From the UHGV virus genome UHGV-0046269: 22,539 nucleotides of DNA; one strand, written 5' to 3'. The notes under the pieces were generated by a model. The model did not search any database. It had not been told where the DNA came from and worked only from the letters and a program-made list of their open reading frames with translations. Numbering within the stretch: position 1 is the stretch's first letter; the number at the start of each line of letters is the position of its first letter. The stretch comes from a virus. This document shows positions 1,468 to 18,970 of this stretch, piece after piece. Both the position numbers and the translations under genes were made by a program.

Positions 1468-3909
1468 TTAAAAATCAGCCTGACTCGGGATCAGTTTTTG
1501 CCAGATAACTGAAACGTATTTTGCCTGGTAACGGGCGTCATCAAGTGCATTATGGCGCTCACCTTCGAATGGAATAGCCGTTCTGGCATCGAAGTCTATG
1601 GCTTTCCCCAGCTCAACGATTGTGCGTACATCGCGATCGTTGTAGTAACGCCACGGGCAGGGGATCCCCTGCCGTTCGTATGAACGGCGCAAAATCGTGT
1701 TGTCGAAGTTGGCTCCATTTCCCCAGACCTGAACAAAAAATTCACCGGAGTTTTCGTCGATAAATTCCCGCAATTGTAACAGTGCATCATCTAACGGGAT
1801 TTCATCGGTCATAATGGCAGATTGCGCTTCGCGTGATTGCTTAAGCCACCATTTAATGGTGTCCCGATCAATGACTCCGCCAGCAGTTTCCAGATCGATA
1901 GTCTTACTAAATTCCGGTCCCATATCTCCGGTTTGCGGATCGAAAAATATTGCACCTATTGAGATGATCGGGGCATCAGGATTTTTTCCCATGGTTTCAA
2001 GGTCGATCATTAGATGGTCACACGTCCTGCTGGTGGATGTGATTTCTTGATGACCGTTCACCTTAATTGAGTGATCTGCCGTCTCGCCAGTTTCATTATC
2101 GCTATCGTGATGCTGATTGCCGCCAGTGTTCTCCTTGTGTGGATGTTCAGCGCCTTCCATTTCCTCCGGATCATCTTCCTGAACTTCAACCTGATACTCT
2201 TCATCGAATGTTTCCTGGTATGTTGCGTCGCCCATCACCGCGCCACAATCAGGGCAGTTGCCGCCGCCGGTCTGACCGCAGGCGGTGCAGACTTTTTCCA
2301 CTTCCTGTTGCGCCACTGGTTCGGATTGTTTCGTTTCTGGCTCGTTTTGTAACGCATTTGGGCTGTTTTGTTCCGCTTTTTGGTCGTTCCGTTCCGATTC
2401 ATGCTGGTTCTGGTTCACAGAATCGCGAGTCTGGATCCCTTTGACCCATTTCGGATCATTAGGGTCGCTAATCCCCTCAACAAATTCACCACGCGATACA
2501 GCAAGTAACTTATCGGCGTCAGGCTGGCTGATATTGGCTGCCTGCATAATTTTGTTTACTTCGTCAGCGGTGACTTTTACTTGGTTAGCGGAACTCACCT
2601 GCGACTGAGCATCCAGCGACTGCGCGTTCTGGCCATGTTCAGTTGTATCCGGTTCCATTGTTTCAGTTGTTGCCTGTTCACCTGCCATTGCGTCAGATGG
2701 TTGTGGTTTTTCTTCTTCTGTTTCACGCTCAGTAACCACCTCGCGGTTAATTTCTTCCAGGATATCTTTTTCCGGCGTATGCCGGGCAGCTGTGAGAGTT
2801 TCCTTGCTGGGGTTCTCGTGATCAGTTTCCGTCAAATAGGCGTTGATATACCCCTGAAGGCGTCCCGGGTAGTGATAAAATTCAGGGTGTGCGCTTCGGA
2901 TAAGTGCAAAAATAGCGGCGCGGGAATAGTCCAGAATACCCGGGGTTGCACGAAGTGCTGCGGACCATTCTTTGAACGGACTTTCTTTGTTCAGGACTAC
3001 TTCTTTTGCGCGACGATAAACGCTGCCCGGAATTTCATAAATATTAAAATCCATCGGAAGTGTGGCTGCTGCAATCTCCACATCCAGTGTGTCGAGGGTG
3101 TGTACTAAATTCGGATTGCGATCGGTTTTGTTCCCACCGCCAGCATTAGCACCGGAAGCCGTGCGGGTGATGCGTGAAACACGATTTCCTTTCATCCACT
3201 CTTTTGTCAGCAAACCCCGATCAGTGTAGTCAGCGTCTAGGTATGCTTCGAAAAAAGCAGTTATTAGTCCCAGGTCTGAATTACCAGGATTAGGGAAAAC
3301 TTTGTCAGTGTCACGAACCAGTTTGTGGAGGTCGCGAATCTCCAGCGAGTCGAGCAGACTGGTTTTATGCGAAATAGCCAGGGCAGTAACAGCCGGTAGT
3401 TCTTCAGCCCGTGCAATGTGTAATGCCTGGAGTTCGTCGCGTGAAACGTGCGTTACTGGTTTTTCGCTGCCGTGTTGAGCAAGCCAACGAATGGGCAGTT
3501 CCTGACCGGAGACAGGCAGAAGCATGCTCTCCTCAATCTCAGTCATGGCTTCGCCGTTGATGTTGGTATTGTCAGTGCTGGCTGGTTTGTCCTGAACAGA
3601 GGGGGAAGGGCCGATAAATGTCATTGTGATGCCATCTTTCCCGCCTTTTTCATAGCGGTTGCAGAATTCAGTATCAAACACGCCTTCTGGCGGAAGGTCG
3701 TCAACAACGGGCAAATTGACGCGGACGGGTTTTTTAAAGTCGTCTTCATCATAATCGTTGTCATCCATTGCGGTAATGCAGCGGGAGATTGCAACAGATA
3801 ATTTTTTTGCTGTAGTCCAGTAAAAACCACCTTTAATTCCTAGGCGTTTTCTTACTTTGTCATTTTTTGCTTCGCAATATAGTGCAAATTCTTCTTTATC
3901 AGTGCTCAT
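1468..3909 (-). CDS. Large phage protein with C-terminal DEDDh 3'-5' exonuclease domain (exodeoxyribonuclease VIII-like in related prophages)
   Basis: 813 aa ORF. C-terminal region carries exonuclease motifs I (MIDLETMG), II (VWGNGANFD) and III (HNALDDARY). A long acidic low-complexity middle region contains a CxxC...CxxC pair ([16 protein letters not shown]). Occupies the position of exo/bet in lambda. Confidence 0.7.
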
Positions 3910-4002
3910 TATTGGTAAACCTCATCACAGATTTAAGGGTGAACAAATCTCTGCCATTGCTGACATATAAGAATGAAACTGGATATTTATTACGGTGCTG
4001 TT

Positions 4003-4194
4003 TTAAAATCCTGCCGGGATTTCGTTATTATCCTGGTGAATAACTTTATCGACCGGATAACAGTTGCCTGGAATTTTCTGTTCGGTTGCTGCTGCCATAC
4101 ATTCCTGCATTGTTCTGTGAACACTGACTGCAATATCAACTGACTCTCCGGAAACAAGAAAAACCGTCAGAATAAGTGCAAATACTGGATTCAT
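4003..4194 (-). CDS. ydfD: YdfD-like small protein with N-terminal hydrophobic segment
   Basis: 63 aa from MNPVFALILTVFLVSG; its ATG overlaps the dicB stop (ATGA); position after dicB matches the Qin prophage operon. The track ORF (4003..4248) has an upstream in-frame Met that I consider less likely. Confidence 0.55.
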   Translation of the reverse strand: MNPVFALILTVFLVSGESVDIAVSVHRTMQECMAAATEQKIPGNCYPVDKVIHQDNNEIPAGF

Positions 4195-4379
4195 TGTGCA
4201 CATCCTTTTGGCATCAGACGTAAACGGGCCAGCATTGAAACAATGCATACTTTATTTAATAACTCCCGTTCGTGTTTTCTTTTGTTAATGGCATCTTCAG
4301 TAAATACAGGATTACTGATAGTGACACCAATTTCAAAACAACCTTCAGACGTATTAACGTTTGGTAATAACGTTTTCAT
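4191..4379 (-). CDS. dicB: Cell division inhibitor DicB
   Basis: 62 aa from the internal Met (MKTLLPNVNTSEGCFEIGVTISNPVFTEDAINKRK...MPKGCAQ) matches my recollection of E. coli DicB nearly residue for residue; lies immediately downstream of dicF as in Qin. Confidence 0.8.
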   Translation of the reverse strand: MKTLLPNVNTSEGCFEIGVTISNPVFTEDAINKRKHERELLNKVCIVSMLARLRLMPKGCAQ

Positions 4380-11546: not shown

Positions 11547-12596
11547 GTGCGGGTATTACTTCGACCTGTTCTGGTACCGGAACTCGGGCTGGTGATCGTT
11601 AAGCCGGGCCGTGAATCCATGCCGGTATTCCACAATACCCGGTTACTGGTGGAGCCGGAACCGAAAAGCATGCGTAATCTGCCGTCCGGGGTCGTTCCTG
11701 CCGCTCGCCAGCCGCTGGTGGAAGACAAAACATTGCTGCCGTTTTTCAGTAACGCACGGGTGATTCGTGCTGCTGGTGGTGCTGGTGCATTGTCTGACTG
11801 GCTGTTGCGCCATATTAAATCCTGCCAGTGGCCACACGGCGATTATCATCACAGCGAAACCGTCATTCACCGTTATGGTACCGGCGCAATGGTGTTGTGC
11901 TGGCACTGCGACAACCAGCTGCGTGACCAGACATCCGAATCACTCGAGCAACTTGCTCATCAAAACCTGTCAGCATGGATGATTGACGTCATCGGTCACG
12001 CAATAAGCGGTACGCAGGAGCGTGAATTATCTCTGGCTGAATTATCCTGGTGGGCGGTCCGCAATCAGGTGGCGGACGCGCTACCGGAAGCGGTATTACG
12101 TCGTTCGCTGGGGTTGCGTGCGGAAAAAATCCGCTCAATGTACCGTGAAAGCGACATCGTACCGGGAGAGCAGACCGCCACCAGCATACTGAAACAGCGC
12201 ACAAAAAATCTTACGCCGCTGCTTCACGCCCACCAGCAACAGAACCCACCACAGGAAAAGACGGTGGTCAGCATTGCCGTTGATCCTGAGTCTCCGGAAT
12301 CTTTCATGAAACGACCTAAACGTCGCCGCTGGGTTAACGAGAAATACACACGCTGGGTGAAGACACAGCCGTGTGCGTGTTGTGGTAAGCCAGCCGACGA
12401 TCCCCATCACCTGATTGGTCATGGTCAGGGCGGAATGGGGACAAAATCTCACGATATTTTCACGCTACCGCTGTGTCGGGAGCATCACAACGAGCTTCAT
12501 GCGGATCCGCTGGCGTTCGAAGAAAAGCATGGTTCTCAGGTTGATTTAATTTTTCGTTTTCTTGATCACGCCTTTGCAACTGGCGTGCTTGGGTAA
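11547..12596 (+). CDS. ydfU: DUF968-family phage protein (YdfU-like) with C-terminal HNH-like Cys/His motif
   Basis: 349 aa, GTG start after a GGAGG RBS. C-terminus CACCGKPADDPHHLIGHGQGGMGTKSHD...CREHHNELH is characteristic of the family. Confidence 0.7.
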   Translation: MRVLLRPVLVPELGLVIVKPGRESMPVFHNTRLLVEPEPKSMRNLPSGVVPAARQPLVEDKTLLPFFSNARVIRAAGGAGALSDWLLRHIKSCQWPHGDYHHSETVIHRYGTGAMVLCWHCDNQLRDQTSESLEQLAHQNLSAWMIDVIGHAISGTQERELSLAELSWWAVRNQVADALPEAVLRRSLGLRAEKIRSMYRESDIVPGEQTATSILKQRTKNLTPLLHAHQQQNPPQEKTVVSIAVDPESPESFMKRPKRRRWVNEKYTRWVKTQPCACCGKPADDPHHLIGHGQGGMGTKSHDIFTLPLCREHHNELHADPLAFEEKHGSQVDLIFRFLDHAFATGVLG

Positions 12597-12608
12597 AAGA
12601 GGTGACTG

Positions 12609-12965
12609 ATGCTCATAGATTTGGTTTTACCTTACCCGCCGACGGTGAACACTTACTGGCGACGCCGTGGCAGCACATATTTTATCTCGGAGGAGGGAAA
12701 GCGTTATCGCCGGGCTGTGGCGCTTATTGTTCGCCAGCAGCAGCTGAAATTAAGCCTGTCCGGAAGGCTGGCGATAAAGGTGATTGCAGAGCCACCGGAT
12801 AAGCGTCGTCGCGACCTGGACAATATCCTGAAAGCACCGCTGGATGCGCTGACGCATGCGGGAGTGTTAATGGACGATGAGCAGTTTGATGAAATCAATA
12901 TCGTTCGTGGTCAGCCAGTATCTGGTGGACGTCTGGGGGTGAAGATTTACCCCATAATGCATTAA
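12609..12965 (+). CDS. rusA: Holliday junction resolvase RusA
   Basis: 118 aa; PYPPTVNTYWRRRG and DKRRRDLDN...DAL motifs correspond to the RusA family (compare DRRRRDLDN in E. coli RusA). Confidence 0.88.
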   Translation: MLIDLVLPYPPTVNTYWRRRGSTYFISEEGKRYRRAVALIVRQQQLKLSLSGRLAIKVIAEPPDKRRRDLDNILKAPLDALTHAGVLMDDEQFDEINIVRGQPVSGGRLGVKIYPIMH

Positions 12966-12979
12966 GAGCAGGTCAAAAA

Positions 12980-13801
12980 ATGAAACTGGAAGATTTACCG
13001 AAATACTACTCCCCAAAATCCCCTGGCCTGACCGATGCATCGGCCTCAACGTCAAAAGATGCGCTGAGTATCACTGATGTGATGGCCGCGCAGGGCATGA
13101 CACAGAATCGGGCTGAGATGGGTTTTTCTGCGTTCCTGGGGAAAATGGGCATCAGTATGAATGACAGGGCGCGGGCAACAGAATTACTGGCAGATTATGC
13201 ACTCAGTCGGTGCGATCGTGTGGCGGCGTTGAGAAAACTTCCGGCAGAAATAAAACCGGTAGTGATGCGCATTATGGCTTCGTACGCTTTTGAGGATTAT
13301 GCCCGCAGCGCAGCGAGTAAAAAGCAGTGCCCTTGTTGCTATGGGGAAAAATTTATTGAAAGCGTAGTTTTTACAAACAAGGTCCAGTATCCGGATGGTA
13401 AGCCGCCGGTATGGGCAAAGTGTACGAAAGGTGTGTATCCGTCTTACTGGGAAGAATGGAAAAAAGTCAGGGAGGTGGTAAAAGTTGCCTGTCCGGAGTG
13501 TGGCGGAAAGGGTGAGGTTTCCACCGCCTGTAAGGATTGCCGTGGGCGTGGTGTCGCCATTCACCGTGAAGAGTCGGTAAAACGTGGTATGCCTGTTATC
13601 AGAGACTGCCAGCGTTGTGGTGGTCGTGGCTATGAAAGACTACCATCAACGGAGGTATTTAATGCTATATGCGAGGTGACAAACCAGATAACACGCGCGT
13701 CATGGGAAAAAACAGTTAAGAAATTCTATGATGCGCTGGTGACCCGGTTTGATATTGAAGAAGCATGGGCTGAGCGGCAGTTAAAAAAGGTAACTAGGTA
13801 A
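12980..13801 (+). CDS. Late-gene antiterminator Q-like protein (QuuQ-like) with multiple CxxC zinc-finger motifs
   Basis: 273 aa; position between rusA and the tRNA/lysis region is the canonical Q slot; contains CPCC, CPECGGKG, CKDCRGRG and CQRCGGRG motifs. Confidence 0.65.
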   Translation: MKLEDLPKYYSPKSPGLTDASASTSKDALSITDVMAAQGMTQNRAEMGFSAFLGKMGISMNDRARATELLADYALSRCDRVAALRKLPAEIKPVVMRIMASYAFEDYARSAASKKQCPCCYGEKFIESVVFTNKVQYPDGKPPVWAKCTKGVYPSYWEEWKKVREVVKVACPECGGKGEVSTACKDCRGRGVAIHREESVKRGMPVIRDCQRCGGRGYERLPSTEVFNAICEVTNQITRASWEKTVKKFYDALVTRFDIEEAWAERQLKKVTR

Positions 13802-13944
13802 CAAGGTTGATTTTTCCGGAATCTGTGGTAAATTCGTCATAACGATGGGCTTTTTATGCCTGACGTTAGAAGAGTTTCTACAACCCGCCGCCGAGCGGGT
13901 TTTTTATTGCGGAATTAATTACGGACCGTTATTATTCTGCTCCC

Positions 13945-14020
13945 GGCCCTTTAGCTCAGTGGTGAGAGCGAGCGACTCATAATCGCCAGGTCGCTGGTTC
14001 AAATCCAGCAAGGGCCACCA
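13945..14020 (+). tRNA. ileZ: tRNA-Ile2 (anticodon CAU, ileX/ileZ-like)
   Basis: 76 nt cloverleaf: acceptor GGCCCTT/AAGGGCC, D-arm GCTC...GAGC, anticodon loop CTCATAA, T-arm GCTGG-TTCAAAT-CCAGC, 3' ACCA. Close to E. coli tRNA-Ile2 as I recall it. Confidence 0.88.
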
Positions 14021-14027
14021 TCACATA

Positions 14028-14104
14028 CCGCCATTAGCTCATCAGGAAAGAGCGCCAGCTTTCGAAGCTGGTTGCGCGGAGTTCGGGTCCCCGATGGTGG
14101 TCCA
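14028..14104 (+). tRNA. argN: tRNA-Arg (anticodon UCG), argN-like
   Basis: 77 nt: acceptor CCGCCAT/ATGGTGG (one G-U), D-arm GCTC...GAGC, anticodon stem CCAGC/GCTGG with loop TTTCGAA (anticodon TCG), T-arm CGGAG-TTCGGGT-CCCCG with one A-C mismatch, 3' TCCA. Confidence 0.6.
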
Positions 14105-14117
14105 TTATCGGTATTCT

Positions 14118-14194
14118 GCGTTGTTAGCTCAGCAGGACAGAGCAATTGCCTTCTAAGCAATCGGTCAGTGGTTCGAATCCAGTACAACGCGCCA
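14118..14194 (+). tRNA. argO: tRNA-Arg (anticodon UCU), argO/argU-like
   Basis: 77 nt: acceptor GCGTTGT/ACAACGC, anticodon loop CTTCTAA (TCT), T-loop GGTTCGAATCC, 3' GCCA. Confidence 0.88.
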
Positions 14195-14304
14195 TATTCA
14201 TTCTTCCAGATTCCTTCCGGCAGAGCCTTATACTGGAATATACCTGGCTCAGGATATTGTTGAAAATATTATATGTTTGTCAAAAATAAAAGTTCTGTTA
14301 AGTA

Positions 14305-14658
14305 TTGATTGAGTGTTTGTTATACGGTCTAATGGTTTTTTCAGCATTAAATATTTATCATTCATATGGTGTGGGTAGAGTGAATATTGATGAGGCGTCG
14401 GGGTGTTTCATCCTTAGGCAGCGTATTGATATAGTCAATGCAGCACGAGCAAAGGCCTTCAGCCGTTTGACAGTTTTGTTTTGTACTCCTGATCGTCTTT
14501 CGGGAAGAGACGTTATTATTCTGAATAGTGATGCTATACAGAGGGTTAGCGATGAGTTCATGGTTGCTAATTCAGAATTATTTGCTCTTGTTCAGGAGTA
14601 CAACAGAATAGCCAGGACCTGTGGTATGGATGAACTTCGGATTACTCATCTGGGGTAG
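14305..14658 (+). CDS. Hypothetical protein in AT-rich cargo island (start uncertain)
   Basis: 117 aa track ORF; a GTG start near 14379 would give about 92 aa (MNIDEASGCFILRQRIDIVNAARAKAF...). AT-rich surroundings; no family recognised. Confidence 0.35.
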   Translation: MIECLLYGLMVFSALNIYHSYGVGRVNIDEASGCFILRQRIDIVNAARAKAFSRLTVLFCTPDRLSGRDVIILNSDAIQRVSDEFMVANSELFALVQEYNRIARTCGMDELRITHLG

Positions 14659-15052
14659 ATACATATCTGGATTATCACCTGTTACGGTAAAAAGTGATTG
14701 CTTACTGTTTTTGTGAATGGCATTGCAGCAGCCGGATAATGTCAGTGCTGGCTGACGGTGTGCTGGTGGCAGGTGTGGTGGTTGTTGCTTTTCCGTTGCT
14801 GAAAAAGAAAACGCCAGACTGTTAGCCGGGTATCAGTTAGCGGGAGAAATTTTTAAATACTTCACAATTCAGGCGGTTGACTGTTGTCTGGTTTGCGGGG
14901 AGTTTGTTAAAAGAAACTGGCATGGTGAATCCCCCTGTGCGGAGGGGCAATCAGCGAGTAGGTATATGGGATAATCGCGGATTCAGGTGCTGGTACTGAA
15001 TTCACCGGGAGGCACCCGGCACCATGCAATGGCACATAGCGCCACTCTCCAA

Positions 15053-15078
15053 CCCCTCTCCGGAGGGGCTGTTTATAT
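15053..15078 (+). terminator. GC-rich hairpin followed by T-rich tract (possible intrinsic terminator)
   Basis: CCCCTC-TCCG-GAGGGG followed by CTGTTTATATTGATTTT; a related hairpin CCCCT-GTGCGG-AGGGG lies about 115 bp upstream (14934..14949). Confidence 0.35.
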
Positions 15079-15105
15079 TGATTTTGTCAGATGTGAGTAA
15101 ACTCC

Positions 15106-15441
15106 TTATGGACTTTGTTGTTTTAGTCCATAAGGACATATTTGCAGAGTGCAACGGTTATTAAAGCATTCATTCAATACGTTATCTGTATTTGTAGGGC
15201 ATTCCTGGCTGTTTTTGATTAAATTCCAGAATGTTTTATTGAATGGTACTACGTTGTAAATGGTTACAGGTAGCACTTTGTTATTGAGCATGATGCCTGT
15301 GTGAGTCAGTGTAAATATACTTTCAGGAGGTAAGAAAGCATCCGATTGATACCAGATTATTAATTTTATTTTACTCCATATGACTGAAAAAGATATTCCG
15401 CATGATGGCTGGATAACTGTATCAATCACAATCCACTTCAT
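15106..15441 (-). CDS. Hypothetical AT-rich orphan protein (moron candidate)
   Basis: 111 aa ORF on the opposite strand to the flanking phage genes, AT-rich composition with AT-rich upstream region (15442..15690); Cys-rich C-terminal part ([26 protein letters not shown]). Confidence 0.4.
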
Positions 15442-15701
15442 TTGGTTTCCTTGTTTATGCCTTGCTGGTGATGTCCTGAAAAGTATAAATGATATTTTTG
15501 AATGTAAACCATAGAGCAGAATTATTTTTCTGATGTTGTTTATTGTTTATTTAAATGCAGGGTGGTTTATATCTCGTCTTGTAGTTTATCCATGCATATC
15601 TGCTTGATAATCAGGTTTTTATTTAAGGTATAGTTTTGTGTTTTTTCTGTATTACATGTCAGGTATTTTAAAGAATTATTTTTCAGATAGTGGAAAGAAC
15701 C

Positions 15702-15890
15702 ATGGCATTTAAACACTATGATGTTGTCAGGGCGGCGCCGCCGTCAGATCTTGCGGAAAAGCTGACACATAAACTGAAAGAGGGCTGGCAGCCGTTTGGT
15801 AGTCCGGTGGCCATAACCCCTTATACCCTGATGCAGGCGATTGCAGCAGAAGGTGATGTGGTGGTCAGTGGTGCAACTGAGCCGGAGTGA
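15702..15890 (+). CDS. Small phage protein preceding the lysis genes (DUF1737-like)
   Basis: 62 aa from MAFKHYDVVRAAPPSDLAEKLTHKLKEGWQPFGSPV; small genes of this type commonly precede holin genes in lambdoid prophages. Family call is from memory. Confidence 0.5.
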   Translation: MAFKHYDVVRAAPPSDLAEKLTHKLKEGWQPFGSPVAITPYTLMQAIAAEGDVVVSGATEPE

Positions 15891-16197
15891 TACTACGTCA
15901 TCGTACTGGCCCGGCATTCCAGGCCATAAAAGACAGTCTGGCAGTGGGACTAAATGCACTGACGCTGACGGATATTACCAAAAATGCAACGTATGGCGTT
16001 GAGATAGAAAGTCTGGCGCTGGAGATAAATGCACCGGCATCATCATAAAAAGTGAGCCAGTCAAATGGAAGGTATCGTTAAACTCACCGGTAGTGTCAGT
16101 GGGTCGTCTGAGACGCTTGCATGAGTTATCAGAGCCATCAGTAGTTAACTGGTGGCTTTTTTATTGTTGTCAGCTTCCGGATAACGGGAGACGGGGT

Positions 16198-16413
16198 ATG
16201 GACCAGATGGAAAAAATCACAACAGGTGTGTCATACACCACGTCAGCGGTGGGAACGGGCTACTGGTTCCTGCAGTTGCTGGACAGGGTTTCCCCGTCTC
16301 AGTGGGCGGCAATAGGCGTGCTGGGAAGTCTGCTGTTTGGGCTGCTGACATATCTGACTAACCTGTATTTCAAAATCAGAGAGGACCGTCGTAAGGCGGC
16401 ACGGGGAGAGTAA
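16198..16413 (+). CDS. S: Phage 21-type pinholin S (dual-start motif Met1/Met4)
   Basis: 71 aa from the internal Met: [71 protein letters not shown], close to phage 21 S as I recall it; two TM segments and a charged C-terminus. The track ORF begins upstream at 16093. Confidence 0.85.
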
Positions 16414-16417
16414 TTCA

Positions 16418-16762
16418 ATGACTCAAAACTATGAACTGATTGTGAAAGGGATCCGCAATTTTGAGAATACAGTTACGGTAACTTTAGCGTTACGGGACAA
16501 AAAACGCTTTGACGGTGAAATTTTAGACCTGGACATCTCGCTGGACCGTGTTGAAGGTGCCGCGCTGGAGTTTTATGAGGCAGCAGCCAGAAGGAGCATC
16601 AGACAGGTCTTCCTGGATGTTGCTGCCGGGTTATGTGAAGGGGATGAGCAGTCACCGGAAAAGCGCCCCATAATTTTAGAGGCGCAGGGTGTGTGGATAA
16701 CCTACAAAGGAAAACTGCCGGGAAGAATTACTGGTTCACTGAAGACTCCGCCGAAATGGTAA
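16418..16762 (+). CDS. Hypothetical protein inserted between holin and endolysin
   Basis: 114 aa ORF starting 5 nt after the holin stop. No lysozyme, spanin or other recognisable motifs. Confidence 0.5.
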   Translation: MTQNYELIVKGIRNFENTVTVTLALRDKKRFDGEILDLDISLDRVEGAALEFYEAAARRSIRQVFLDVAAGLCEGDEQSPEKRPIILEAQGVWITYKGKLPGRITGSLKTPPKW

Positions 16763-17000
16763 TTTCACCAGCATATTTTTCTTCCAGTAATACCGCCAGC
16801 CACTTGAAAGAATTTTGTTGTTGCTGGGACCATTTGGGGTTGAGTGATTCAAGCTGGAGCGATGCCAGTGTTGGTTGCATTTGTTCCTTGGGAATTGAGA
16901 ATGCCAGATATGAAAATGCGACAGTAAGGGCATTTACATCATCCCGAAGCTTGGAAATGCAGTCGAGCAACTCCTGTAGAGAAATGGTGCTATTGTCCAT
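16728..17000 (-). CDS. Hypothetical protein, antisense to the lysis operon
   Basis: 90 aa from MDNSTISLQELLDCISKLRDDVNAL with a GAGAGGA RBS upstream on the minus strand; its 3' end overlaps the 3' end of 16418..16762 by 35 nt. Confidence 0.4.
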   Translation of the reverse strand: MDNSTISLQELLDCISKLRDDVNALTVAFSYLAFSIPKEQMQPTLASLQLESLNPKWSQQQQNSFKWLAVLLEEKYAGEITISAESSVNQ

Positions 17001-17105
17001 AAACAATCCTCTCTATTGTATTTAACTATTCCTTGCCTGATTCAACAGGCCGGGACAGATAAACATATCCAGGGTTCAGAAACCGATAAATCCTGATAAA
17101 TATCC

Positions 17106-17639
17106 ATGAACGCAAAAATCAGATACGGCCTGTCGGCTGCCGTTCTGGCACTGATTGCCGTCGGTGCGCCTGCGCCTGATATTCTCGACCAGTTTCTGGA
17201 TGAAAAAGAAGGTAACCACACAACGGCATACCGCGATGGTTCCGGTATATGGACCATCTGTCGTGGTGCCACAATGGTGGATGGTAAGCCCGTCATACCG
17301 GGAATGAGGCTGTCGAAGGAAAAATGCGACCAGGTTAACGCTATTGAACGTGATAAGGCGCTGGCATGGGTGGAGCGCAATATTAAAGTACCACTGACCG
17401 AACCACAGAAAGCGGGTATAGCGTCATTCTGTCCCTATAACATTGGCCCCGGTAAGTGTTTCCCGTCGACGTTTTATAAGCGGCTGAATGCCGGTGATCG
17501 TAAGGGCGCATGCGAGGCGATTCGCTGGTGGATAAAAGATGGTGGGCGCGATTGCCGCATACGTTCAAATAACTGCTATGGACAGGTTATTCGTCGTGAC
17601 CAGGAAAGCGCATTAGCCTGTTGGGGGATAGATCAGTGA
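17106..17639 (+). CDS. R: SAR endolysin (phage lysozyme, R21-like)
   Basis: 177 aa; N-terminal hydrophobic SAR segment ([16 protein letters not shown]) followed by an E-x8-D-x5-T catalytic triad ([16 protein letters not shown]), as in phage 21 R / P1 Lyz-type lysozymes. Confidence 0.88.
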
Positions 17640-18103
17640 GCAGAGTCGCAGCGATTATTTATACTCTGGTTATCTGCACCATCGTCTGCCTGTCATGGGC
17701 TGTTAATCATTACCGCGATAACGCCATTACCTACAAAGCCCAGCGCGACAAAAATGTCAGAGAACTGAAGCTGGCGAACGCGGCAATTACTGACATGCAG
17801 ATGCGTCAGCGTGATGTTGCTGCGCTCGATGCAAAATACACGAAGGAGTTAGCTGATGCGAAAGCTGAAAATGATGCTCTTCTGCGGAAGCTTGATAATG
17901 GTGGCAGGGTGCTCGTCAAAGGAAAATGCCCTGTGCCATCCTCAGCCGAAACCTCCAGCGCCTCCGGCATGGGCAATGATGCCACCGTCGAACTCTCTCC
18001 AGTTGCTGGACGAAACGTTCTCGATATCCGGGACGGAATTATCCGCGACCAAACAGCACTGAGAACGCTTCAGGAATACATTAGGACGCAATGCCTTCGA
18101 TGA
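17636..18103 (+). CDS. Rz: Spanin inner-membrane subunit Rz
   Basis: About 155 aa from a GTG overlapping the endolysin stop (GTGA); N-terminal TM segment ([19 protein letters not shown]) then a coiled-coil-like region; Rz1 is embedded in the +1 frame. Confidence 0.78.
17856..18062 (+). CDS. Rz1: Spanin outer-membrane lipoprotein Rz1 (embedded in Rz)
   Basis: 68 aa entirely inside Rz in another frame; lipobox LIMVAGCSS and a proline-rich mature region ([16 protein letters not shown]). Confidence 0.75.
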
Positions 18104-18445
18104 TAGCAATAATTTTACTCATCATCCTTCACATCTGGCTCTGTAGACAGGGTGGTGATCACTTCTGGAGTAAATCCAGATTAAACATCTCATTGCTGAT
18201 GCTTGATATTGAGCATCTGGCGCGCAGTAAGGGGCTGCGTTGAGATAAGAGCCAGTTCATTACAAATACCAGGATTTAGCCTCGCATTCGCGGGGCTTTT
18301 TATATCTGAATTTCACAGCGCATCTCACGCGCATATTAACGAGAGCCTTTCAGTAAGCGAGCCTGAGAAATGCCGTTATAGGTGGCGACCTCTCTCGGGC
18401 GGCTTTTCTGTGAGACAGGCTCACTTTCTAAAAGGTAAAGACGCT

Positions 18446-18970
18446 ATGAATAATCATTCAGTTATTCCAGCCTTCGACTTCCGAGAAATGGTGCAAGCCA
18501 AAAACGGAGAGGTCGTTACCACATCCAGAAAAATTGCCAAGTACTTCGGCAAGCGACACGGTGATGTTCTCAGGAAAATCGAGCAGGTTAAGGCTGATTG
18601 CTCGCGTGAGTTTAGCCAACGCAATTTTGCGTCGGCTGATTATATCGATGAGCAGGGCAAGGTTCGCCCGATGTACAGCCTGACGAAAGATGGCTGGATC
18701 ATGGTTGTGATGGGGTTCACCGGGAAAGCTGCTGCGGCAATCAAGGAGAGCTATATCGCAGCATTCAACTGGATGGCAGAGCAACTGAGCCGCCGCATGG
18801 CAATTGGCGAAGAAATGCAGCACCGCTACGCCACCAAAGAAACACGCTCAAAGCTGAAAGGTACGATCGGCAGTCGGTTAATGAACGAACGGAAGAAAGA
18901 GAAGCGTGTCCTGGCTGTCGAGCATGAATACATCTTGCAGGTGACACAGCCTGAACTGCTGATTAATTGA
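18446..18970 (+). CDS. Rha-family phage regulatory protein (antirepressor-like)
   Basis: 174 aa from MNNHSVIPAFDFREMV (RBS AAAGGTAAAG); N-terminal region VVTTSRKIAKYFGKRHGDVLRKIEQ resembles the Rha domain. The track ORF 18203..18970 includes an implausible N-terminal extension. Confidence 0.65.
   Translation: MNNHSVIPAFDFREMVQAKNGEVVTTSRKIAKYFGKRHGDVLRKIEQVKADCSREFSQRNFASADYIDEQGKVRPMYSLTKDGWIMVVMGFTGKAAAAIKESYIAAFNWMAEQLSRRMAIGEEMQHRYATKETRSKLKGTIGSRLMNERKKEKRVLAVEHEYILQVTQPELLIN

Follow-up and report, generated by a model that had tools for sequence, protein, structure and literature searches.

A moron-like opposite-strand gene beside ydfR in an S21-type lysis cassette of a lambdoid Escherichia coli prophage

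The lysis cassette of phage 21 consists of the S21 pinholin, the R21 signal-arrest-release (SAR) endolysin and Rz/Rz1, and in it S is followed directly by R. In the Qin prophage of Escherichia coli K-12, a gene of the YdfR/DUF1327 family, ydfR, lies between an S21-type holin gene (essQ) and a lysozyme gene (rrrQ), and phage lambda carries bor, a lysogen-expressed moron located on the opposite strand just after Rz. The virus genome UHGV-0046269, of which a stretch of 22,539 nucleotides (nt) was analyzed (referred to here as the window), shares with phage 21 the families and the order of its holin, endolysin and spanin, but has two extra genes between S and R, an arrangement that is common in E. 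coli prophages. These are a ydfR gene coding for 114 amino acids (aa) at 16418-16762 on the plus strand and a 90-aa open reading frame (ORF), designated ORF90, at 16728-17000 on the minus strand. A sequence-only reading of the window had put forward this convergent pair as an undescribed system inserted into the lysis cassette.

The explanation that we favor is that a lambdoid E. coli prophage here has an ordinary lysis cassette of the S21 type, in which two accessory genes meet at a mosaic joint, and that ydfR and ORF90 are separable, independent genes from separate families rather than a coupled two-gene system. We put the probability of this explanation at about 0.68, a figure that applies to the whole of it, including the ordinary cassette, the two independent accessory genes and the roles inferred for them. 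Region 16100-17700 matched a lambdoid prophage in E. coli CFT073, and many further E. coli genomes, with 100% identity. The RefSeq annotation of CFT073 lists, in this order, a class II holin, a YdfR family protein, an opposite-strand hypothetical protein, a lysozyme and the lysis protein Rz, with both inserted genes at coordinates matching the ORFs of the window. That two genes without lysis-protein features stand between the pinholin and the SAR endolysin, as the sequence-only reading had stated, was borne out by these ORF coordinates and by two further results. Neither YdfR nor ORF90 contained a membrane segment (maximum Kyte-Doolittle scores in a 19-residue window of 0.85 and 0.88, respectively, compared to 1.70 for the holin and 1.87 for the endolysin), and neither matched a lysis family in Pfam or in the lysis category of PHROG.

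The 114-aa protein matched PF07041 (YdfR/DUF1327) with an E value of 8e-41 (138.6 bits against a cut-off of 25), its residues 1-112 aligning to profile positions 1-92 of 93, and matched phrog_406 over its full length (E 2e-66). Its DNA was found in 4349 of the 5426 complete E. coli genomes searched (80%), in 8608 places and in up to 10 places per genome, and the gene lies between holin and lysozyme in CFT073, K-12 Qin, REL606, O55:H7 and several phages. The earlier view of it as an undescribed insert was therefore not upheld; ydfR is an accessory gene that S21-type cassettes very commonly carry, and not an unusual insert. The gene starts right after the holin stop, as had been noticed; the spacer between the holin TAA (16411-16413) and the ydfR ATG (16418) measures 4 nt, with the sequence GGAGAG located 7 nt 5' of the ATG. 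Ratios of nonsynonymous to synonymous substitution rates (dN/dS) for ydfR ranged from 0.24 to 0.9. An AlphaFold2 (AF2) model placed three beta strands and a helix in residues 1-76, and residues 73-114 had a predicted local distance difference test (pLDDT) score below 50. The K-12 Qin protein, which belongs to the same family and occupies the same place in its cassette, was 78% identical to the window protein over residues 1-74. It differs from the window protein in being 103 aa long, in having an unrelated C-terminal third and in that its gene overlaps rrrQ directly, with no opposite-strand gene following. The 114-aa protein of the window instead has the conserved SPEKRPIILEAQ...GSLKTPP segment and ends in KW, a terminus formed at the ORF90 junction.

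A link with RNA metabolism has been reported for the K-12 protein. In a 2026 study, K-12 YdfR bound the catalytic N-terminal half of RNase E (residues 1-597/598) in two-hybrid and co-purification experiments, its first 72 residues were sufficient for that binding, and the protein also co-purified with RNA (PMC13232886). Overproduction of K-12 YdfR altered few transcripts and caused no growth defect (PMC13232886). RNase E binding is reported for the K-12 protein only, and the window allele was compared with it by sequence, the 78% identity covering the reported binding region.

ORF90 runs from 17000 to 16728 and encodes 90 aa from its ATG, or 92 aa from an upstream TTG; RefSeq lists its product as WP_000370546.1. 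Judged by the substitution pattern among its alleles, ORF90 is a genuine gene under purifying selection. Its product aligned to the phrog_2411 profile (PHROG 2411) with an E value of 4.3e-59, residues 1-90 falling on profile positions 1-90 of 90. Twenty-four distinct ORF90 alleles were collected from E. coli genomes, phages and viral contigs, and dN/dS was calculated against the window allele by the Nei-Gojobori method over the 79 ORF90 codons that do not overlap ydfR. Diverged alleles gave values of 0.20-0.37, with a significant excess of synonymous changes in three comparisons (p = 1.3e-5, 4e-4 and 0.004). Four of the other five reading frames gave ratios of at least 1.05; the fifth gave 0.28 and is discussed below with the rival explanations. 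Additionally, codon position 2 of ORF90 was less variable than position 1, and the GAGGA and ATG of its translation start were kept in five cassette alleles and in an allele linked to the iha gene. As had been pointed out from the sequence, ORF90 has its own ribosome-binding site, the Shine-Dalgarno sequence GAGAGGA at 17006-17012 on the minus strand, 6-12 nt 5' of the ATG. The same reading had named two findings that would speak against it, and these came out differently: the 114-aa gene did prove to be a common lysis accessory gene, but the minus-strand ORF, which was to lack coding conservation, shows it clearly in the dN/dS values given above.

The ORF90 product is predicted to be a soluble, acidic protein (isoelectric point 4.4, net charge -5.5). 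Its AF2 model, with a pLDDT of 77.6, consists of three helices (residues 8-34, 38-52 and 59-76) followed by a disordered tail (residues 81-90). Searches of Pfam, NCBIfam, PADLOC and the sequences of the PDB returned no match for it, and for PHROG 2411 itself we found neither a known function nor a Pfam or NCBIfam model nor a solved structure. Literature searches by protein accession, by locus tag and by DUF1327 found nothing on ORF90, and the general literature on morons and lysis cassettes added nothing specific.

The boundaries of the inserted DNA were located by alignment with phage vB_EcoS-733R4, which has the order S-ydfR-R without ORF90. The two sequences part at about 16760 and rejoin at about 17048, defining a presence/absence segment of about 290 bp (16763-17048) that contains most of ORF90 together with its ribosome-binding site and the upstream spacer, and that has a GC content of 0.42 compared to 0.48-0.54 in the flanking genes. 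This segment was detected in 1221 of the 5426 genomes, in 1355 places, and about 84% of ydfR copies were without ORF90. The YdfR family alignment gave a corresponding picture on the other side of the joint. The proteins end in one of three ways, in KW (114 aa), in ESQP (116 aa) or in an extension to 176-211 aa; the ...TPPKW end was seen only where ORF90 follows, and ...TPPESQP or the long extensions otherwise. These alternative ends, with or without ORF90, place a recombination joint directly after ...GSLKTPP, at codon 112/113.

The same slot can hold a different gene. In PhiR5_1, a minus-strand gene for an 86-aa protein of phrog_2572 (3371-3631 of locus L003) occupies the position of ORF90 and overlaps the 3' end of a gene for a 211-aa YdfR. 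PHROG 2572, which also follows long ydfR genes in Stx-type prophages, resembles ORF90 in slot, orientation, size and overlap with the ydfR 3' end, but has no detectable homology with it; a relationship between phrog_2411 and phrog_2572 was considered and rejected, with BLASTP finding nothing and hhalign giving a probability of 0.8%. A "DUF1823" label for the 86-aa gene falls below the Pfam threshold. Altogether, the ydfR-R joint seems to have received small opposite-strand genes repeatedly, from at least two unrelated families. These observations, together with the many ydfR copies without ORF90 and the ORF90 relatives without ydfR described below, also show that the two genes are not a conserved pair, and speak against an undescribed two-gene system.

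Other rearrangements of this part of the cassette were observed as well. Both genes are carried by standard laboratory strains, namely CFT073 and the B strains REL606 and BL21, and by the inducible phages phiSTEC1575-Stx2k and Chlobot. In REL606 (locus L004; NC_012967.1, 1416625-1418524) and in the BL21-derived Rosetta2(DE3), a rearranged remnant of Rac harbors the same holin-ydfR-ORF90-lysozyme-Rz block, flanked by ydaF and trkG and away from any Q gene, and its ORF90 segment is 100% identical to that of the window. In phage phiSTEC1575-Stx2k (1936-3954 of locus L091), a lysis set of another kind, comprising two holins and an M15 peptidase, takes the place of the SAR lysozyme after S21-holin-ydfR-ORF90, so that holins of two types are found in one phage. 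In E. coli WGS1363 (2840-4009 of locus L090), ORF90 and the lysozyme gene are separated by an inserted IS3-family element, ISEc52, about 100 nt 5' of where ORF90 starts.

As the sequence-only reading had it, the two genes are convergent and share 35 nt at their 3' ends (16728-16762), the last 11 codons and stop of ORF90 being antisense to the last 11 codons and stop of ydfR. This overlap looks like a by-product of the insertion rather than a designed regulatory overlap, because all that it encodes of ORF90 is the disordered and variable tail (pLDDT < 50), on pre-existing ydfR sequence: the last ORF90 codons are read from a ydfR antisense that is unchanged in cassettes without ORF90. Convergent transcription may have a regulatory effect, and nothing found here requires one.

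Relatives of ORF90 exist well beyond lysis cassettes. Among 1.84 billion representative proteins, a profile search for the ORF90 family gave only 18 hits, and additional members from Serratia were found by scanning a genome collection with a narrowed alignment. The distant relatives are 26-39% identical to ORF90, of similar length, and share the core ELL..I..L...VN.L.VAFSYLAFS...E; compared to phrog_2411, proteins from Serratia, Logan assemblies and other sources gave E values of 1e-10 to 1e-19 (4.5e-10 for the Serratia homologues). They occur as single genes, in a lambdoid phage beside terminase genes, in a 6.4-Mb genome and in several Serratia species. In Serratia, the homologue of 92-93 aa is encoded on the chromosome by a single gene flanked by dinI and bssS (for example at 3971-4252 of locus L100, and also in L096, L099 and L101-L104), with dN/dS of 0.04-0.10, a conserved helical core and a variable proline-rich tail. 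These chromosomal members of PHROG 2411 differ from ORF90 in lying far from lysis cassettes and in being under far stronger constraint, and they suggest that the target of ORF90 is cellular rather than lysis-specific.

Diverged ORF90 copies without ydfR were also found outside lysis cassettes, amongst insertion sequence (IS) remnants, at 74-75% nucleotide identity. The copy in E. coli F11 (2446-2718 of locus L006) adjoins iha, an adhesin/siderophore receptor gene, and the copy on plasmid pCeylon31IncF (2460-2738 of locus L005) adjoins an autotransporter gene. The iha-linked copy is present in 59 genomes and retains short pieces of the flanking cassette. It counted for little as independent evidence of selection, since identity among the 59 copies is 99% or higher.

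ORF90 can be compared with moron genes. Like lambda bor, ORF90 is a small opposite-strand gene of the late region, and it shows traits of a moron in its presence or absence between collinear phages, its lower GC content and its own translation signals; phage 733R4 itself has a bor gene on the minus strand directly after Rz. ORF90 differs from bor in that its product is predicted to be a cytoplasmic, acidic, helical protein and not a lipoprotein, in that the gene lies inside the cassette and overlaps ydfR, and in that its promoter, its terminator and its expression in the lysogen are putative. With these differences noted, ORF90 is moron-like and belongs amongst a known kind, the accessory or moron genes of lambdoid late regions.

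Under the favored explanation, ydfR, which is closely spaced to the holin gene, is presumably co-transcribed with the late lysis genes, and by homology with the K-12 protein its product most likely binds RNase E or RNA and adjusts mRNA decay during lytic growth. ORF90 would be a moron-like gene brought in on the low-GC segment, which separates the conserved ydfR 3' end from the sequence preceding R, its frame running from the inserted segment into the antisense of ydfR and so giving rise to the overlap. It probably has a weak promoter of its own, for which TTGAAT-N19-TACAAT at 17015-17045 on the minus strand was picked out by eye, with a -10-like hexamer that is partly conserved amongst alleles (TACAAT, GACAAT or TATAAT). 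A hairpin inside ydfR may serve as its terminator. This candidate, GCGCCUC-N9-GGGGCGC followed by UUUU at 16659-16685 on the minus strand, is found 42 nt beyond the stop of ORF90, within ydfR codons 82-90, and is part of the minimum-free-energy fold; it was missed by our scan, which covered loops of 8 nt or less, and an equivalent 9-bp hairpin is retained in the iha-linked remnant. If these signals operate, the lysogen could express ORF90 without need of the Q-dependent late operon, and the gene would be shut off after induction by late transcription entering it. The product most likely acts by binding another protein. No LexA box was seen by eye upstream of ORF90 or of the Serratia homologue, and an Rfam scan of 15500-18500 gave no RNA family at E <= 1.

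Several observations weigh against this explanation. A sigma-70 consensus scan of 15900-17700 found no promoter for ORF90, and the spacer of the motif read by eye is long and poor, with a leader that would measure only about 8 nt. The terminator hairpin is weak (z = -1.9), and since its sequence codes for conserved YdfR residues, it is found where ORF90 is absent as well. Neither protein had a significant match in fold searches, and those run with ORF90 against solved and viral structures turned up nothing informative. The RNase E role of YdfR comes from one study of another allele, which has a C-terminal third unrelated to that of the window protein and whose overproduction altered few transcripts. 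Finally, in all 88 cassette-type loci examined ORF90 stood directly after a 114-aa ydfR, even where the ydfR alleles were only 71% identical (range 71-96%), and the 35-nt overlap was present throughout.

This last observation is what one would see if the two genes formed a functional pair, in which either convergent transcription with antisense pairing over the overlap or a direct interaction of ORF90 with YdfR sets the timing of lysis or acts as a toxin-antitoxin or counter-defence switch. The unrelated phrog_2572 gene overlapping a long ydfR in the same manner is in keeping with such a pair, as is the piece of the ydfR 3' end that the iha-linked remnant retains. Recombination through the conserved flanking sequences accounts for the constant adjacency equally well, however, and leaves some room for a functional link. 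ydfR is found mostly without ORF90 (K-12 Qin and phage 733R4 being examples) and the distant homologues of ORF90 stand singly, away from any ydfR, so that the two are not conserved as a pair in the way that toxin-antitoxin genes are expected to be. The overlap, moreover, spans only the disordered tail of ORF90, and no Rfam family was found. A toxin-antitoxin or defence module, which the sequence-only reading had considered plausible, is unlikely because there is no obligate pairing, because the PADLOC-DB 2.0 defence models contained no family for either protein at E <= 1, and because K-12 YdfR overproduction is not toxic (PMC13232886). Taken together, we regard a functional pair as quite unlikely.

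A more specific form of the moron reading would make ORF90 a defence, superinfection-exclusion or anti-defence factor expressed in the lysogen. The small size, acidity and helical fold of the protein are like those of many phage inhibitor proteins, and its position and orientation, lower GC content and variable presence amongst related prophages are what would be expected of such a gene. The absence of any matching PADLOC model or informative structural neighbor argues against this assignment, and the fact that the most conserved homologues are chromosomal, at a fixed dinI-bssS site in several Serratia, points to a cellular role; we consider this form unlikely. It could also be asked whether ORF90 is a gene at all, or a chance open frame opposite other constrained sequence. 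The fifth frame mentioned above, with its equally low dN/dS of 0.28, is on the plus strand, shares wobble positions with ORF90 and is open in the window as a 110-aa ORF (16693-17025); nonsense alleles of ORF90 were present in 3 of about 90 viral-contig loci; and constraint on ORF90, similar to that on ydfR, is relaxed relative to the endolysin (0.3 vs 0.05). The value for the 110-aa frame is misleading, though, because of the wobble positions that it shares with ORF90, and this ORF was rejected as a real gene, having one to four stops in six diverged alleles in which ORF90 stays open. Substitutions were also more conservative in the ORF90 frame (mean BLOSUM62 of -0.03 vs -0.63 in the plus-strand frame), and in concert with the codon-position pattern, the conserved Shine-Dalgarno sequence and ATG, and the strongly constrained homologues in other genera, this effectively refutes the chance-frame explanation. 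The reading of ydfR and ORF90 as two independent accessory genes of an ordinary cassette is the one that we retain.

The remaining genes of the cassette are those of a standard S21-type set. The S21-type class II holin, or pinholin, is a 71-aa protein with a Met1/Met4 dual start (16198-16413, plus strand; Pfam Phage_holin_2_1, E 9e-33), so annotated in CFT073 as well. The SAR-type endolysin R (17106-17639, plus strand; 177 aa) matched Phage_lysozyme in Pfam (E 1e-24) and has a Gly/Ala-rich hydrophobic N terminus, and the Rz i-spanin gene (17621-18103, plus strand) matched Phage_lysis (E 7e-31) and phrog_13. A 68-aa ORF (17856-18062, plus strand) with a lipobox (...VAGC) lies within Rz in another frame, as expected for the Rz1 outer-membrane spanin; it is missing from the RefSeq annotation of CFT073.

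Upstream of the holin, a strong terminator-like hairpin with a 12-bp stem followed by a T run (16131-16159, plus strand) lies about 40 nt before the holin start and would hold the lysis genes silent unless transcription is antiterminated. According to the CFT073 annotation, the stretch from the Q antiterminator gene (12269-13090) toward the holin, 12269-15887, is packed with cargo: an IS200C tnpA (13341-13799), a tRNA-Ile and two tRNA-Arg genes (13945-14194), iraM on the minus strand (15106-15441) and a truncated DUF1737 pseudogene (15702-15887). The IS200 element immediately after Q may influence the function of the late promoter.

The chromosomal relatives of ORF90 beside dinI in Serratia are strongly conserved, and for that reason one further idea can be raised, namely that ORF90 is a small effector made in the lysogen that acts on a conserved enterobacterial target, and that its pairing with the RNase E-binding YdfR forms a switch. 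If this were true, leaky expression of the lysis operon or the activity of YdfR would be held back in the lysogen by ORF90 or its antisense transcript, and ORF90 would be silenced at induction by late transcription. We hold this to be very doubtful.

The main value of these results is a negative one, in that a candidate for an undescribed system turned out to consist of a very common prophage gene, ydfR, and a moron-like insert, both already annotated through Pfam or PHROGs and in RefSeq across thousands of genomes. YdfR is the product of a late lysis operon gene carried by four-fifths of E. coli genomes, and its K-12 representative is reported to bind RNase E (PMC13232886). ORF90, in turn, represents a real, small protein family under selection, with a strongly conserved chromosomal branch in Serratia.

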